This document shows, piece by piece, positions 45,062 through 50,764 of a stretch of DNA of 64,000 bases. The translations under genes were made by a program, and so were the position numbers. The notes below the pieces were generated by a model. The model was not told the origin of the DNA. It saw only the letters and a program-made list of their open reading frames with translations, and made no database searches. Source of the stretch: an uncultured Aminicenantes bacterium (GTDB lineage Bacteria; Acidobacteriota; Aminicenantia; UBA2199); contig CBDAFS010000055.1 in assembly GCA_965195285.1 (NCBI GenBank), positions 61,728-125,727 of the forward strand, written 5' to 3'. The number at the start of each line of letters is the position of its first letter. Position 1 is the stretch's first letter.

Positions 45062-45085
45062 CGTTTTTCTCTTCTTTTTGATTAC

Positions 45086-45170
45086 TGCCGGAGGGGGGAA
45101 TCGAACCCCCACAGGGCTAGGCCCCGTCAGATTTTGAGTCTGATGCGTCTGCCAATTCCGCCACTCCGGC
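45086..45170 (-). tRNA. tRNA-Leu(CAA), CCA not encoded
   Basis: GCCGGAG acceptor; anticodon arm TCAGA-CTCAAAA-TCTGA; long variable arm; GGGGG-TTCGATT-CCCCC. Confidence 0.95.
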
Positions 45171-45182
45171 AGGCGATGCCAT

Positions 45183-45211
45183 ATTATAGTAACTCAGGCT
45201 TTTTTTGTCAA
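45183..45211 (-). promoter_or_regulatory. Consensus sigma70 promoter for tRNA-Leu (and probably rnf)
   Basis: TTGACA-N17-TATAAT. Confidence 0.8.
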
Positions 45212-45676
45212 TTAAAATCATCAACAAAATCCCAGAATTAAAGCAAAAACATCTTTATGCTTCAGTTCCGATTCCAATTATCAACAATCATAGATTTATT
45301 GGCACCACTCCCAATCGTTCAAAGCTATCCTTTGAAATTAACAAAAATTAAAAAATTAAAACCCCGTCCCCGCTTTTTCGCTTTTTTTCTATGTAATAAG
45401 ATAATACAATTTATCCATATATCAAAACAGGATTGTCTCAAAACAATACATTCCGAAAACAACTCAATATACCTGATATTATTATCTTTATATAATATCT
45501 CTTGAAAAACTGATCTAAAATGAAACAGATTTTTATTCGGGGGAATACCTAAAATCTGTATTATTTCAAGGTTTTAGACTTGTTTTAGATCTGGAAACAA
45601 AATTGCTGATATATAGATTCAAATATTGAGCAATAGCAGAGGATAGAATTTTTGAAAAGAAGGAATATTACAATAT

Positions 45677-46018
45677 ATGAAACATAAGAATCTATGCAAA
45701 AAGATTATCGAATATGTTTGGTCACTAAACTTGGAAGAATTATCACAACTAACAAGATATAAAATCGCAATAAAATTTGGAATTAATGAAAGCTATTTAT
45801 CAAGAAAATTTAAAAATGATACCCAAATGTTACTTTCTAAATTTATTCTGGTTGTAAAAATTAATAGAGCAGAAGATTTGCTAAAAATAAGATCAGATCT
45901 AAATATCAGGAATATTTCCAAACAAGTAGGATTTATAAAAATTGAGCAATTCAGGCAATATTTTAGAGCTAGAACAGGCCTGAATCCGAGTAAATACAGG
46001 AGATACCATCAAAATTAA
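45677..46018 (+). CDS. Stand-alone AraC-type HTH regulator
   Basis: IAIKFGINESYLSRKFK and ISKQVGF..FRQYFRARTGLNPSKYR; no sensor domain. Confidence 0.85.
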   Translation: MKHKNLCKKIIEYVWSLNLEELSQLTRYKIAIKFGINESYLSRKFKNDTQMLLSKFILVVKINRAEDLLKIRSDLNIRNISKQVGFIKIEQFRQYFRARTGLNPSKYRRYHQN

Positions 46019-46156
46019 CATTTTGGGGGGTTGTATTCTCATTGTCTTTTTTAAATAATTTCTAATGAAGAATAAAAATGATTGCAACTTTATTAATAAA
46101 TTGAATATCAATATTATTTTTATTGATAAATATTTAATATAAAAAGGGAGGATAAG

Positions 46157-46336
46157 ATGATTAAAAAGATTTTAAAAATGTTTTTTGTAACTTTAATGTT
46201 ATTTGTTTTAGGTTTATCTATTTTGAATGTTACGTCATTTGAGACAGAAGCTGTTATTGTCAATATGACTTATGTTCATTGGTTGAATAATTGCTACTTA
46301 CCTAAATCCAATTGCGTAATTATACACAAGATATAA
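46157..46336 (+). CDS. Small secreted peptide, 59 aa, with two cysteines (not in ORF track)
   Basis: GGGAGG SD, then MIKKILKMFFVTLMLFVLGLSILNVTSFETEAVIVNMTYVHWLNNCYLPKSNCVIIHKI*; Sec-type signal ending in T-E-A. Confidence 0.75.
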   Translation: MIKKILKMFFVTLMLFVLGLSILNVTSFETEAVIVNMTYVHWLNNCYLPKSNCVIIHKI

Positions 46337-46480
46337 AGAGGTAGATATCATAACTTATAAAATATTATTTCTAAAACAGCATTGAATAATAGTAATCAAG
46401 ATGGAGCAATGTTATCTGTTCCATATAGATTACATATATTGATTAAAATTTAGACAGGGAATAAAAGGAGTGCATTCATT

Positions 46481-47584
46481 ATGAAGAAATTGGTCTTATT
46501 TTATACAGTATTTTTGTTATGTGTCAATTATTTATTTTCACTAAATATAAAAAAGATAAATTCTTTTATTCTTGAACATAAAAAAGAACATTATATTCAC
46601 ATTCCTGGCTCTTTTATTGTAACCGATGATAATTACATATATTTAACAGATAGAAAGGAAGGAAATCTAAAAATATTTGATATTAAAGGAAATTTTATTA
46701 AATCCTTATGGAGAAAGGGACGAGGTCCAAACGAGTTTGTAAGTCCTCATTTGATGACGGATTATCAAACCCAAATATTAGTGACAGACTTTCAAGGGAA
46801 TTCTTTATATGTATTTAATAGAGAGCCGAAAAACATATTAGAATTAAAGGATAAAGTATTCTTCATAACATTAGCAACAGACTTTCATTTTCTAAACTCT
46901 CACGAATTATTGATGTCTGGAAGAATCATAAATGCAGATAACTCCGAGACAGAGAACTACGGTTTATTTAAATATAACTTTGAAACAAATAAATATCATT
47001 ACCTAATACCCTCACACGTCTGTTACGGGTATAAGACTCAAAATGAGTTCAATAAGGCATTCACCTCAAAAATGATCTATATTGGTATACCAAGTTATTT
47101 ATGTGTTACGGAGAGCGATATTTTTTTTGTATATACAGGGGCTCTGAACATTTTAAAATTAAACAGAACTTCCAAAAAGATCTCTTTTTTTGGGAAAAAA
47201 ACCTCAAATTACACAAAGCCATATGTAAGCCCGGAGTTAATAAAAGCATATAATAGATTTGATAGAAATAATACTTATAGAGAAAAAATAAGAAGAACCA
47301 TGTCCTTTGTTTTGGATTTGTTTGCTATAAACAATAAGGAAATAGGACTTATATATTCAAGATTTAAAAAGAATGATGATACTATTGATCTTTTTTTGCA
47401 GGTTTATGATTCATCAGGAACTTTTATTAAAGAATTTTTATTTATGAACACTAAAGCATTTGGTAGAGATGAGTTATTTTTTTATTATAAAAAAAACAAA
47501 AATCTATTGCATGTATTGGAAACAAAAACTGACGATGATTTTGAGCAATTTCATGTAATTAGTGTATACAAAATAGAGAAATGA
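46481..47584 (+). CDS. Secreted 6-bladed beta-propeller/NHL-like protein
   Basis: Signal peptide; IYLTD...LKIFDIKGNFIKSLWRKGRGPNEFVSP motif. Confidence 0.7.
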   Translation: MKKLVLFYTVFLLCVNYLFSLNIKKINSFILEHKKEHYIHIPGSFIVTDDNYIYLTDRKEGNLKIFDIKGNFIKSLWRKGRGPNEFVSPHLMTDYQTQILVTDFQGNSLYVFNREPKNILELKDKVFFITLATDFHFLNSHELLMSGRIINADNSETENYGLFKYNFETNKYHYLIPSHVCYGYKTQNEFNKAFTSKMIYIGIPSYLCVTESDIFFVYTGALNILKLNRTSKKISFFGKKTSNYTKPYVSPELIKAYNRFDRNNTYREKIRRTMSFVLDLFAINNKEIGLIYSRFKKNDDTIDLFLQVYDSSGTFIKEFLFMNTKAFGRDELFFYYKKNKNLLHVLETKTDDDFEQFHVISVYKIEK

Positions 47585-48066
47585 AAAATTATATTATTGG
47601 AATACTTATAGTATTTGTTTTATTCTTATGTAGTTTATTTTACAAGAATAACAACCAATCAAATTTTGAATGTTTTCCAATACCAAAAAGCTTAATTGCT
47701 CAATCTGAACATCCAATCTTATATATTTTTATTGTTTTTTCAAAGGATAATTGCAGTGATTGTTTAGGTATTATAGATGTATTGAATAATCTTCCCTCTA
47801 ATTTTATTGTTTGTGGAATTGTTAATAAGGAAGAAATGAAGGATGAAAATGAGTTCAGAACTATAATTGGGGCTAATTTCCAACTAAAAACTTCTTTTAG
47901 CAAATTAACAAAGTTCTCGCCAAATTATACCCCAACAATCATTGGGGTTGGTCAAAATGGTAAAATATATTTTGTTCTCCCTGGAGTTCCCAATGAAAAA
48001 GAGTACTTGGAAAAGTTCTTGAATGACTTCTATACACGAGCCTTCCCATTATTAATGACAAAATAG
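47581..48066 (+). CDS. Membrane-anchored thioredoxin-fold protein
   Basis: N-terminal TM segment, CSDC motif after a beta strand, YTPT cis-Pro-like loop; ATGA-coupled to the propeller gene. Confidence 0.6.
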   Translation: MKNYIIGILIVFVLFLCSLFYKNNNQSNFECFPIPKSLIAQSEHPILYIFIVFSKDNCSDCLGIIDVLNNLPSNFIVCGIVNKEEMKDENEFRTIIGANFQLKTSFSKLTKFSPNYTPTIIGVGQNGKIYFVLPGVPNEKEYLEKFLNDFYTRAFPLLMTK

Positions 48067-48199
48067 TACTCACATTTACATTCAAATCTCAAACTATTTG
48101 AAAATCCATTTTTTTCCTGATAAAAAATGAACTGAGGGACTCAATCTGTTAAAAAGTGTGTAAAATTCTTAACACTACCAAACTTTCGAAACTTCTGAA

Positions 48200-48424
48200 A
48201 AATTACAACTGGGCCGTTGCGGAGAATCTCTTGGAAAAAGTTGTGAAAGAAAGGCTCCTACATCAAAGTTGCTAAAAACAAATTTGTATTGATAGATCCA
48301 ATACCTGCTATTCAACACTTCTACATTTATACGCACCGTACCCTCTTTAACACCCAACTCCGGTAATATATGACAAAGATTTCTTACTTAATTAAAAAGT
48401 GGTGCAATAAATGGGAGCAGGTCA
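48200..48424 (+). pseudogene. Degenerate IS3-family transposase 3' remnant with right end
   Basis: Fragments NWAVAENLLEKVVKERL, IQHFY and TPVIYD resemble the NAVAESFF..LKKE / FYN..R.HSSL..TP C-terminus; terminus reads 5'-TGACCTGCTCCC on the minus strand. Confidence 0.45.
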
Positions 48425-48427
48425 AGT

Positions 48428-48598
48428 TCAATCAGTACTAATAATATTTACTATGCTTTTATAATCAGATGCATCTTTAAAAATATAATGAGGACTATAC
48501 TTTTTTAAGGTCTCATATGAATATTCACCGGATGCTAATGAAATAATTTTAGCCCCTACAGAAAAGGCACATTCGATATCCCTTTTTAATGTATTTGA
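48428..48598 (-). pseudogene. C-terminal fragment of a HAD-family hydrolase
   Basis: Hand translation RDIECAFSVGAKIISLASGEYSYETLKKYSPHYIFKDASD; no intact N-terminus. Confidence 0.5.
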
Positions 48599-48831
48599 AA
48601 TTGCCCTCTATTTTGTAATTATTTTTTTTTACTGACATACTAATAACAATTCTGATTTCAAAACTGTGTCACTAACTGTGTCACCTGATGGTACAGTTTA
48701 ATACAGATAATACGTTTAATTGGAATACTACAAAACTGCTGTAAATCCCGAAAACATGCATTATCACTGATTATAGAGCTATATTGCCCGTTTCGCAAAA
48801 CTACTAAAAATGATGGGGTCATAAAAATGAT

Positions 48832-48996
48832 GGGGTCAGGTCTTGCATTGCAGCATTTTCAGTGAAATCAATTGTTACATTATATTATTTTTATAACTCA
48901 TTCCTTTCACCCCCATCAAATATAACATCCCAATTAAATATGAATCCTCAAAAATGTTGGGAACAATTGATATCTTTATTCTTTAGACCTGACCCC
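48832..48996. mobile_element. MITE-like repeat family A, copy 1
   Basis: Terminal inverted repeats GGGGTCAGGTCT...AGACCTGACCCC; the 3' ~95 bp is shared with 50377-50536. Confidence 0.8.
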
Positions 48997-49159
48997 GATC
49001 ATTCTTGGAAAATTATTCAACAGAGCAAGAATGAAAAATCACAAAAAGTGAAGAAGTCAAGAAGTCATGCACCGTCACCCTATTTTTTACGTCACCCTAT
49101 TTTTTATCAAGCAACGTCCCCTCTATATTCATCCTTTTTATGTTAGAATGACATACTGT

Positions 49160-50347
49160 ATGTCGAAGGAAAACCAGATGATCGGAGAGGTCAAAACCAT
49201 TGGCAAGGGAGGACGGGGAATCGTTCTTTTTGAGGAGAAACCGGTTTTTATAGACCGGGTTCTGGCCGGAGAAACGGTTGAATTCACCATTACTGGGAAG
49301 AGGCATTCGGTATGGTTCGGTTCGCTGACAAAAATAATCGGAGCTTCGGAAGACCGGATTGCGCCACCCTGTCCTTATTATTCCCGTTGCGGAGGCTGCA
49401 ATTTCCAGCATATCGCCTACCCGAGGCAGGTCACGCTTAAAAAAAATATCCTTACAGACAACCTGAAAAAAATTTCCGGGATACGGCAGGTTCCCCCGGT
49501 CAACATTTTCACTTCTCCGGCTTTCGGATACCGGACCAAGGTCGTTTTAAAAGTCAGGAACGGCAAAGTCGGATTCCTGCAGAGAGAGAGCCACCGGCTG
49601 GTCGAGATCGACCGCTGCCTGCTCTTGCCGGGAGGCGGGGAAAAAGTGATAACCGACATCAGAAGAAATCCCCGGACAAAAAAGGTCATGAATGGCGAGA
49701 TCATGGTCCTGTGCAATGACCGGGAGTTTTCAGCCCTGGCCAAAGAAGGGCAAACCCTATATTTCCTGACTCCAGAAAAGGAAATCACATTTGATGTGAG
49801 AGGTTTTTCTTACCGGTTCACACCGGATAATTTCATCCAGGCCAACCGGTTCACCCTGGATGTTATGATTGAATTGGTCGAGAGTCAGATGAAATCAAAT
49901 CCATGGCACCATGCCATTGACCTGTATTGCGGGGCCGGCTTTTTTACCATCCCTCTGTCGCGGGGATGCGAAAAGGTCATTGCCTTCGATATTGAATCGG
50001 GAAACCTCCGTTCATTGGAAAAAAACCTTCAGGCCAACGGAATCAGAAATGTGACCGTGATAAAAGCCGACATAAACCGGTCTTCACTGCCCGATGCGGA
50101 TCTATATCTGGCTGACCCGCCCAGGACCGGCCTGAAGCCGAATACCATACGTAATATGTCCCGGGGTCCGGGAAAGCGGATTTTCTACTTCTCCTGTGAT
50201 TCGGCTACATTTTGCCGGGATATATCCCGTTTCCGGGCCAACGGATACCGGCCGAAAAGTATAACCCTTGTCGACAACTTTCCCCAGACCGATCACTTCG
50301 AGATTTTTAGCTGTCTTGAATACTTCTCCGGAAACAAAAAAAAATGA
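49160..50347 (+). CDS. RlmD/TrmA-family uracil-5 RNA methyltransferase with TRAM domain
   Basis: CPYYSRCGGCNFQH, FIQAN, DLYCGAG, DPPRTG, YFSCD and FPQTDHFE. Start uncertain; ATG 49160 chosen. Confidence 0.88.
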   Translation: MSKENQMIGEVKTIGKGGRGIVLFEEKPVFIDRVLAGETVEFTITGKRHSVWFGSLTKIIGASEDRIAPPCPYYSRCGGCNFQHIAYPRQVTLKKNILTDNLKKISGIRQVPPVNIFTSPAFGYRTKVVLKVRNGKVGFLQRESHRLVEIDRCLLLPGGGEKVITDIRRNPRTKKVMNGEIMVLCNDREFSALAKEGQTLYFLTPEKEITFDVRGFSYRFTPDNFIQANRFTLDVMIELVESQMKSNPWHHAIDLYCGAGFFTIPLSRGCEKVIAFDIESGNLRSLEKNLQANGIRNVTVIKADINRSSLPDADLYLADPPRTGLKPNTIRNMSRGPGKRIFYFSCDSATFCRDISRFRANGYRPKSITLVDNFPQTDHFEIFSCLEYFSGNKKK

Positions 50348-50376: not shown

Positions 50377-50536
50377 GGGGTCAGTTCTTTCATTATAACA
50401 TTTAATATTAAGATAATGGGACCATTTTTTTATAACCCATCCCTTTCACCCCTCATCAAATCAAATATCCCAATTATATGGGAATCCTCAAAAATGTTGG
50501 GAACAATTTATATCTTCATTCTTTAGACCTGACCCC
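50377..50536. mobile_element. MITE-like repeat family A, copy 2
   Basis: GGGGTCAGTTCT...AGACCTGACCCC, followed by a TGACCCCGGCTA duplication. Confidence 0.78.
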
Positions 50537-50682
50537 GGCTATGACCCCGGCTATAAAAGCGGGGTACAGGGGCTCGGCCCTCTGTTAGAGTCTGAAATGG
50601 CCCGTATGCGAAAAACCACATTATAATTGAATATAATGGTATATTTATCTTTTTAGAAAAGTCTTAAATTTCTCCATGACCG

Positions 50683-50764
50683 GATTTTGAGTCTGATGCG
50701 TCTGCCAATTCCACCACTCCAGCAAGCGATTGATAATTATCTAAACCAAATCTCATTTTGTCAT
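50683..50764 (-). repeat. tRNA-Leu 5'-half copy with decayed promoter
   Basis: GATTTTGAGTCTGATGCGTCTGCCAATTCCACCACTCCAGCAAGCGAT versus 45130-45177, three mismatches; ATGACA-N17-GATAAT at the same offset as the intact promoter. Confidence 0.85.

Follow-up and report, generated by a model that had tools for sequence, protein, structure and literature searches.

A small cysteine-loop protein and its conserved neighbors

A 64,000-nucleotide (nt) stretch of DNA from an uncultured Aminicenantes bacterium (contig CBDAFS010000055.1; hereafter the window) carries four genes between positions 45677 and 48066 that are the subject of this analysis. An earlier note, made from the letters of the sequence, had described an AT-rich block of four co-oriented genes at this site. 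Inspection of the open reading frame (ORF) listing and the GC profile bears this out, with four ORFs on the forward strand and a GC content of 0.23-0.32 over 45250-48750 versus ~0.47-0.56 on either side. In order, these genes encode an AraC-family DNA-binding domain, a 59-amino-acid (aa) small protein, a beta-propeller and a protein with a CxxC motif. The last three constitute the conserved unit, an Aminicenantes three-gene cassette composed of peptide, propeller and CxxC protein.

The 59-aa ORF (46157..46336, forward strand) encodes a small protein predicted to be exported, as judged from the ORF listing, its sequence and the alignment of its family. A GGGAGG lies a few bases 5' of its ATG, in agreement with the strong Shine-Dalgarno sequence claimed for it earlier. 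The product has a Lys-rich N-terminus, a hydrophobic run of ~17-19 residues and a c-region ending in T-E-A. The A-x-A-like site ends at Ala32 and is followed by a 27-aa part that holds Cys46 and Cys53 in a C-x6-C arrangement, where the cleavage site was read by eye from the sequence and a 38-member alignment. The earlier note had also described this ORF as missed. It is indeed absent from the listing made with a 60-aa cut-off, having been overlooked because it falls one residue under that threshold, but it is present when the minimum is set to 30 aa and as the called protein P0172.

The 38-peptide alignment reveals only three invariant columns, namely Cys46, Cys53 and Asn24, the last of which closes the hydrophobic segment, and the spacing of the Cys pair across the family is C-x6/7-C. 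A residue of small size, in most cases Ala, is a recurrent feature 7-8 positions past the invariant Asn, and a small or aliphatic residue stands two positions ahead of this residue, an arrangement that by eye resembles a signal-peptidase I site. The predicted mature part measures 27 aa in the window and roughly 20-70 aa in relatives. Besides the Cys loop, conservation is highest in the hydrophobic leader, which includes the invariant Asn, and the mature regions diverge strongly between peptide subfamilies. Family members are 16-36% identical to the window peptide, which on its own retrieves two relatives with phmmer (5e-5 and 7.7e-4). The ratio of nonsynonymous to synonymous divergence (dN/dS) ranges from 0.14 to 0.56 in 12/12 pairs of at least 55% identity. 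Close pairs give the corresponding ratio of polymorphisms (pN/pS) as 0.42 for the leader and 0.35 for the core, that is, the mature part, which indicates purifying selection in both, and a test of these pairs for diversifying selection in the mature part was negative.

Database searches with the same family returned no name for it. No Pfam or NCBIfam family matches the window peptide or 12 relatives. DUF6520 (PF20130) reaches 14.5-16.1 bits in 3 of 13 peptides scanned, below its cut-off of 25.4, and the window peptide is not among the three. In a collection of 5.8 billion proteins, the family profile finds 26 clusters, all of them unnamed or labeled 'hypothetical protein', with some assigned to Candidatus Saccharicenans. 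The peptide family is new in the sense that it is undescribed in the databases and literature searched.

Linkage of the three genes was assessed across 42 loci, which comprise the window, locus L008 and, from the 90 CxxC matches listed for the whole class, the best 40. These loci hold 44 CxxC genes, 37 of which have a propeller gene directly upstream, and 23 of these 37 pairs share a 4-nt ATGA overlap. Peptides were first picked by a hydrophobic N-terminus, an Asn-Phe motif and at least two Cys residues, a pattern that located such small ORFs in front of most propellers. The profile then built from these picks identifies 39 peptides in 37 of the 42 loci. Gene order varies, with the peptide gene first, in the middle or last, and the trio persists. 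Two of the five loci lacking a peptide reach the contig end 45-57 nt past the CxxC gene. The earlier note had staked its reading on finding a cysteine peptide at homologous loci, and a related gene is present at these 37.

Could the 59-aa ORF be a chance frame, or part of a non-coding RNA region? It is short and lies in AT-rich DNA, and contigs from RNA libraries carry a stop at codon 42. Such an origin does not sit with a family recovered in 37/42 loci, with invariant N/C/C and with dN/dS below 1 in 12/12 pairs. The family profile gave 0 matches at E<=10 when run against the same 2196 ORFs reversed, and Rfam has no match in the peptide-gene region at E<=1. We regard a chance or non-coding origin as extremely improbable. 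Based on the conservation of the family, its invariant N/C/C and its dN/dS of 0.14-0.56, the 59-aa ORF is a genuine gene that codes for a member of a conserved, unannotated protein family.

A search of the class with the CxxC protein yields matches in 56/339 genomes and 25/95 genera, and three genomes of the same genus as the window contain no close relatives of the propeller or the CxxC protein. Of 401 genomes sampled evenly across the phylum, nine have the CxxC protein, all nine belonging to the window's class, and it was not found in the ~360 sampled genomes of other classes. Viral contigs, plasmids and phages gave no relative. As judged by sequence searching, the CxxC protein is confined to Aminicenantes among the genomes searched. 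Cassettes may be present in multiple copies or in tandem (L070, L058). In-frame stops interrupt 8 of the 90 listed CxxC matches (for example G023:C114, G061:C279, G013:C17 and G213:C46), such that decay of the cassette seems common. Records of the carriers bear the names Candidatus Aminicenantes or Acidobacteriota, and four from metagenome-assembled genomes (L085, L090, L094, L097) are labeled 'uncultured Clostridia/Eubacteriales'; these four correspond to the window's family or class, and the labels look generic.

The propeller and the thioredoxin-fold protein

The second member of the cassette (46481..47584, forward strand) is a 367-aa beta-propeller of the six-bladed, NHL/DUF5128-like type that starts with a hydrophobic helix, an assignment made with Pfam, AlphaFold2 (AF2) and Foldseek. 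Pfam DUF5128 (PF17170) scores 26.6 bits against a cut-off of 22.9, where the aligned part covers residues 25-196 only. The AF2 model (predicted local distance difference test score, pLDDT, 95.6; predicted template modeling score, pTM, 0.92) displays six four-stranded sheets. Foldseek pairs this model with 3s9j, 6xg7, 4raa and 5ex7 at E-values of 2.5e-11 to 7e-10 and also with NHL domains, the best structural matches being the exported Bacteroides proteins 3s9j (DUF4221) and 4raa together with eukaryotic NHL domains. A profile search of the PDB likewise returns NHL domains (2.5e-34 and weaker) and 4raa. Aligned propellers are about 21-46% identical to the window protein, with near-invariant columns at D57, K64, G70, G77, G80, G82 and P83, and further ones at D103, F237, P247, Q307, Y309, G313 and E318. 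The closest relative, P0002, is 83% identical. A pattern scan with the window propeller gave no match in genome contigs or metagenome contigs, and the same scan with P0002 returned a single weak, unrelated locus (L006, 34% over 80 residues). DUF5128/NHL-type propellers are strongly expanded in the class (as in genomes G028, G022, G013 and G007), and tandem arrays are known, L010 having three consecutive copies.

Enzymes are known among six-bladed propellers, and the profile of this one weakly matches peptidylglycine amidating monooxygenase in its lyase domain (3fvz, E 0.0082). The propeller might accordingly be a peptide-modifying enzyme in a minimal ribosomal-peptide pathway, or the small protein might be a Cys-rich subunit docked on it as in quinoprotein amine dehydrogenases. 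Methylamine dehydrogenase, for instance, combines a propeller, a small Cys subunit and the thioredoxin-like MauD. The near-invariant columns listed above contain no conserved His cluster or obvious catalytic set. The flanks have no recurrent maturase, be it radical-SAM, MauG-like or of another type, and structurally the protein comes closest to binding-type NHL domains and to uncharacterized exported proteins. Each of these observations argues against such a reading, which we consider very improbable.

The third member (47581..48066, forward strand) is a 161-aa protein for which alignment, AF2 and Foldseek indicate a thioredoxin fold preceded by an N-terminal membrane helix. The start of its gene and the stop of the propeller gene share 4 nt (ATGA), consistent with the translational coupling of the two genes proposed in the earlier note. 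The CxxC motif, C58-S-D-C61, is positioned at a helix N-terminus, and a conserved Pro118 is present. Across the alignment, C58 and P118 are invariant, C61 is kept in 25/27 sequences, and the protein's own membrane helix is also conserved. With relatives 31-51% identical to the window protein, this is the best conserved of the three cassette products.

The AF2 model of the CxxC protein (pLDDT 86.7) contains an N-terminal helix at residues 2-29, a helix starting at residue 60 and a strand starting at residue 119. Foldseek aligns it with DsbE, ResA, CcmG and StoA (3gl3, 3c73, 2f9s, 1kng and others) with a template modeling score of ~0.6, a root-mean-square deviation of 2.7 A over 110 columns and a probability of 1.00. 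From this model, the protein is predicted to have a membrane-anchored ResA/DsbE/TlpA-like thioredoxin fold. No NCBIfam family matches it, no Pfam family exceeds its cut-off, and PDB profile E-values are 0.16 or worse. Among 87 relatives listed, a precomputed Pfam domain is attached to the window's own CxxC protein only. Look-ups in the Protein Atlas, taken as leads only, point to unnamed Acidobacteriota clusters and to some Bacteroidota thioredoxin-like clusters at 0.93-0.94.

One side observation links the peptide and the CxxC protein. A third Cys beside a loop Cys of the peptide tends to pair with an extra Cys in the soluble domain of the CxxC protein; both are present in 12 loci, the peptide Cys only in 3, the CxxC-protein Cys only in 9 and neither in 14, with one clade dominating. 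The loci concerned include L068, L070, L071, L073, L075, L076, L079, L081, L082 and others. Relatedness confounds this table, and it is offered as a lead, not as evidence.

The AT-rich insertion and its surroundings

The cassette lies on an AT-rich insertion of ~3.8 kb (45240..49021, approximate boundaries; GC 0.23-0.36 versus flanks of ~0.5) that starts just past a tRNA-Leu(CAA) gene (45085..45171, reverse strand; called by ARAGORN, Rfam tRNA 60.2 bits). The same-genus genome G001 lacks the insertion that is present beside tRNA-Leu in the window. In that genome, the counterparts of window positions 45239 and 49022 are only 165 nt apart, beside the same tRNA-Leu. In genome G003, the contig stops at the counterpart of window position 45263. 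The insertion carries no integrase, and a search for a second peptide gene or remnant elsewhere in it found none (best E 0.32). The AT-richness is not particular to the window, with the cassette AT-richer than its neighbors in 33 of 34 loci that have measurable flanks, by a mean of 8.7 GC points. The cassette behaves as accessory DNA.

Other features on and around the insertion include a stem-loop between the peptide and propeller genes (46392..46433, forward strand), drawn as a hairpin in the centroid fold. The whole 151-nt intergenic stretch has z = -1.67, which is not significant alone, and a consensus terminator scan found none at 46392-46433; this stem-loop could be a partial terminator. 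A stop-to-stop fragment on the reverse strand (48431..48607) represents a decayed C-terminus of a HAD-type hydrolase (Pfam Hydrolase_like PF13242, 23.3 bits against a cut-off of 22, E 6.1e-5). Plant SOQ1 carries a HAD domain before its thioredoxin-NHL part (PMC6107167); the coincidence is a curiosity and no link is claimed. A repeat of ~110 nt, 90-92% identical between 48888-48997 and 50427-50537, flanks a gene for a 426-aa methyltransferase-like protein (49067-50347). The 5' half of tRNA-Leu, along with its upstream region (45130-45210), has a second copy of 79% identity at 50683-50763, where neither ARAGORN nor Rfam calls a tRNA. The repeat and the partial tRNA-Leu copy suggest past rearrangement at the tRNA locus.

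Upstream of the peptide gene, the 113-aa AraC-family protein (45677..46018, forward strand) consists of the DNA-binding domain only. HTH_18 matches residues 31-109 (E 9.4e-16; 58.3 bits, cut-off 33.6), and HTH_AraC reaches 31.7 bits (cut-off 26.6). The N-terminal ligand-binding or dimerization domain of classical AraC proteins is absent, the helix-turn-helix (HTH) filling residues 31-109 of 113. In size the protein resembles SoxS and MarA, and the SoxS equivalog model gives only 25.8 bits versus 174. The earlier note had counted this gene into the system as a sensorless regulator. Its place in the system is not upheld, as a short AraC-type HTH adjoins the cassette in only 3 of the 42 loci (the window, L053 and L057). 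The AraC gene is not part of the conserved unit and stands as a candidate for a local regulator on this insertion.

Pfam annotation of 133 flanking ORFs revealed no other recurrent neighbor. These ORFs encode housekeeping proteins, transposases, WD40/STAND proteins, kinases and varied regulators. They include no Peptidase_C39 and only two partial ABC_tran ORFs (L045, L078), and no exporter, peptidase, radical-SAM, MauG-like or other maturase gene recurs. At L046, L055 and L056, and in part at L049, the cassette adjoins genes for large WD40-repeat proteins, of which the one at L055 also has a STAND NTPase domain. At L063, L067 and L074, where the order is propeller-CxxC-peptide, it lies beside a divergent pair encoding a ~190-aa protein and a ~500-aa AAA_22 ATPase.

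The gene content of the flanks bears on a reading that follows the earlier note, in which a released, disulfide-looped peptide with a bacteriocin-like or signaling role is accompanied by the propeller as immunity protein or receptor and by the CxxC protein as dedicated disulfide-forming enzyme. Several features would fit such a role. The distribution is patchy and accessory (56/339 genomes, 25/95 genera, 0/3 same-genus genomes), cassettes occur in multiple copies and in tandem (L070, L058), they are AT-richer than their flanks in 33/34 loci, and the mature regions differ strongly between subfamilies. A small Cys peptide beside a dedicated thiol oxidoreductase gene is also found in bacteroidetocin loci (PMC6671954). 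Other features point away from release. The 133 flanking ORFs lack an ABC exporter of the C39-peptidase kind, and no gene for export or processing recurs among them. Purifying selection acts on the mature part (pN/pS 0.35) as much as on the leader (0.42), and there is for this reason no sign of an arms race. A conserved hydrophobic leader with an invariant Asn would be unusual for a mere Sec signal. In a two-membrane cell, the envelope type assumed for Aminicenantes from their phylum, Sec export alone ends in the periplasm. The idea of a released signal or antagonistic peptide consequently found no specific support in the absence of a recurrent exporter or peptidase and the purifying selection in leader and core, and we judge it possible but unlikely.

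A putative thiol-redox module and its relation to known systems

Our preferred interpretation, to which we assign a probability of roughly 0.55, is that the cassette constitutes an extracytoplasmic thiol-redox module with the small Cys-loop protein as its dedicated client. All three products would be situated on the outer face of the cytoplasmic membrane or further out, a placement suggested by the N-terminal hydrophobic segments that sequence and model features assign to each of them. The small protein would be targeted to Sec and probably cut at the conserved A-x-A-like site, leaving the C-x6/7-C loop as the only invariant feature. The ResA/TlpA-like thioredoxin-fold protein may then act on this Cys pair by forming, reducing or editing a disulfide. 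The NHL-type propeller would serve as docking partner; its gene and the CxxC gene are in most cases translationally coupled. By analogy, propeller and CxxC protein could represent a split counterpart of the fused thioredoxin-like domain and NHL propeller of NHLRC2/SOQ1.

With regard to redox direction, the genome encodes two DsbD_TM proteins (DsbD/CcdA-type) and one VKOR protein, and has no DsbB. With both types of partner available and DsbB absent, either direction is possible. A complex prediction for propeller residues 21-367 and peptide residues 24-59, both supplied as alignments, scored 0.02 against a mark of 0.32, a value that speaks neither for nor against binding. The dedicated oxidoreductase suggested by the earlier note is sustained to the extent that its membrane-anchored thioredoxin fold makes such a role plausible for the CxxC protein.

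A number of observations weigh against this interpretation. The Thioredoxin_2 match reaches 19 bits versus a Pfam cut-off of 27, and as a result the thioredoxin assignment rests on fold, not on sequence. Two of 27 CxxC homologues (L044, L054) have CxxN and with it a single-Cys active site. ResA, CcmG/DsbE and StoA are mostly specific reductants, such that the statement that the CxxC protein makes a disulfide is no safer than the statement that it reduces or edits one. Three loci (L045, L055, L080) have room for a peptide gene, and none was found in them. The propeller family is far broader than the cassette, with 2625 cluster representatives at E<=1e-3 (59 at 1e-30) and up to 26 propeller matches in one related 2.5-Mb genome, mostly without a CxxC neighbor; the cassette draws on one branch of this large family. 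Contact among the three proteins and oxidation of the Cys pair are proposals only.

RNA-library contigs provide a further point on the same side. Contigs from two metatranscriptome libraries of one study span 46104-46466 and 46111-46462, which corresponds to the peptide gene with short flanks, and smaller contigs cover the 3' ends of the AraC and CxxC genes; these are read as a hint only, not as proof of transcription, transcript ends or levels. Coverage is missing over the greater part of the AraC gene and over all but the first bases of the propeller gene, and the contigs are uninformative there. Both contigs over the peptide gene, which come from another sample, read A for G at 46281, a change that puts TAG in place of TGG at codon 42, before the Cys loop is reached. 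This site is not spanned by any DNA contig, with runs X2 and X3 giving short pieces only, and a genomic allele is for that reason indistinguishable from a difference at the RNA level. The peptide may be truncated in the population represented by that RNA sample, which weighs against a strict need for the full peptide in this lineage.

The conserved leader also raises the question of whether the small protein is cleaved at all. If uncleaved, it would be a single-pass membrane subunit whose helix packs on the CxxC helix and which tunes or anchors a propeller-thioredoxin complex acting on other envelope proteins. The hydrophobic segment of ~17-19 residues is unusually conserved for a signal peptide and has an invariant Asn at its end, the membrane helix of the CxxC protein is likewise conserved, and ResA/TlpA-type proteins normally serve separate client proteins. 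Because the segment is long and conserved, this is a serious rival. The small residue recurring 7-8 positions past the Asn, which resembles a signal-peptidase I site, speaks for cleavage instead, and an invariant exported Cys pair is most simply the target of a thioredoxin fold. We view an uncleaved subunit as a tentative alternative that is unlikely to be correct.

The thiol-redox module with a dedicated client can also be taken further. The small proteins might constitute a class of Sec-delivered, disulfide-cyclized ribosomal peptides whose leader, with its invariant Asn, would be recognized by a split machine of thioredoxin and NHL propeller, an extension that we hold to be rather doubtful. 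If true, it would be the first case of a thioredoxin-NHL module whose natural client is defined genetically, and thereby a bacterial model for how NHLRC2/SOQ1 act on their targets.

Whatever the outcome for that extension, the locus brings the uncultured Aminicenantes lineage a family of small proteins that is conserved and lacks annotation, with genetic links to a propeller of the NHL type and a thioredoxin-fold protein. A gene list that stops at 60 residues leaves out the very member that defines the cassette. Clients of dedicated envelope oxidoreductases are usually hard to identify. Here a candidate client is encoded next door, and the hypothesis is therefore directly testable with three small genes. 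If the pairing with a propeller follows the logic of the fused thioredoxin-NHL proteins, the cassette could inform the long-open question of the substrates of the eukaryotic proteins.

Among known systems, the CxxC protein is most readily compared with ResA, CcmG/DsbE, StoA and TlpA-like proteins, each of which serves a specific client. The likeness lies in the membrane helix joined to a thioredoxin fold, the CxxC at a helix N-terminus and the Pro loop. In contrast to the members of these families, its sequence similarity falls below the family cut-offs, its co-encoded client candidate is a small Cys-loop protein and not a cytochrome or copper protein, and its gene has a propeller gene as partner.

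NHLRC2 and SOQ1 provide the closest parallel for that partnership, as a TlpA-like thioredoxin domain there works with a six-bladed NHL propeller (PMC6107167). In SOQ1, a membrane helix precedes both domains, which lie on the non-cytoplasmic side, and the redox motif of NHLRC2 faces the propeller (PMC6107167). Unlike these proteins, the cassette consists of two genes with the propeller first and has the motif CSDC in place of the CC(I/V)NC reported for them. In the profile search, SOQ1 is matched just weakly, with E 0.046-0.17 across ~40 residues, and NHLRC2 is missing from the matches listed. NHLRC2 and SOQ1 are also not known to have a co-encoded small peptide. The cassette is not a member of the NHLRC2/SOQ1 family, and it may, by analogy, work like a split version of it.

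Bacteroidetocins, class IIf bacteriocins of Bacteroidales, resemble the cassette in that a small Cys peptide gene stands beside a dedicated thiol oxidoreductase gene in a two-membrane bacterium, and full toxin activity requires the oxidoreductase gene (PMC6671954). The loci described there combine a 15-residue GG leader with a peptidase-domain ABC transporter and a five-transmembrane protein, and have no propeller (PMC6671954). The cassette differs in having a Sec-type leader and a propeller, and no transporter.

In Bacteroidota, small NVEALA proteins are reported to be paired with DUF5128/DUF4221-type propellers. The likeness to these systems is that the cassette propeller passes the DUF5128 cut-off and matches Bacteroides 3s9j and 4raa. 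The earlier note had drawn the comparison with NVEALA peptides. The NVEALA profile (PF14055) has no match at E<=1 to the window peptide, to 12 relatives or, in a whole-genome scan, to the locus, and the comparison is one of analogy only. The literature search found no paper on NVEALA or DUF5128, and a search on Aminicenantes, thioredoxin and beta-propeller returned nothing on the cassette among the papers listed.

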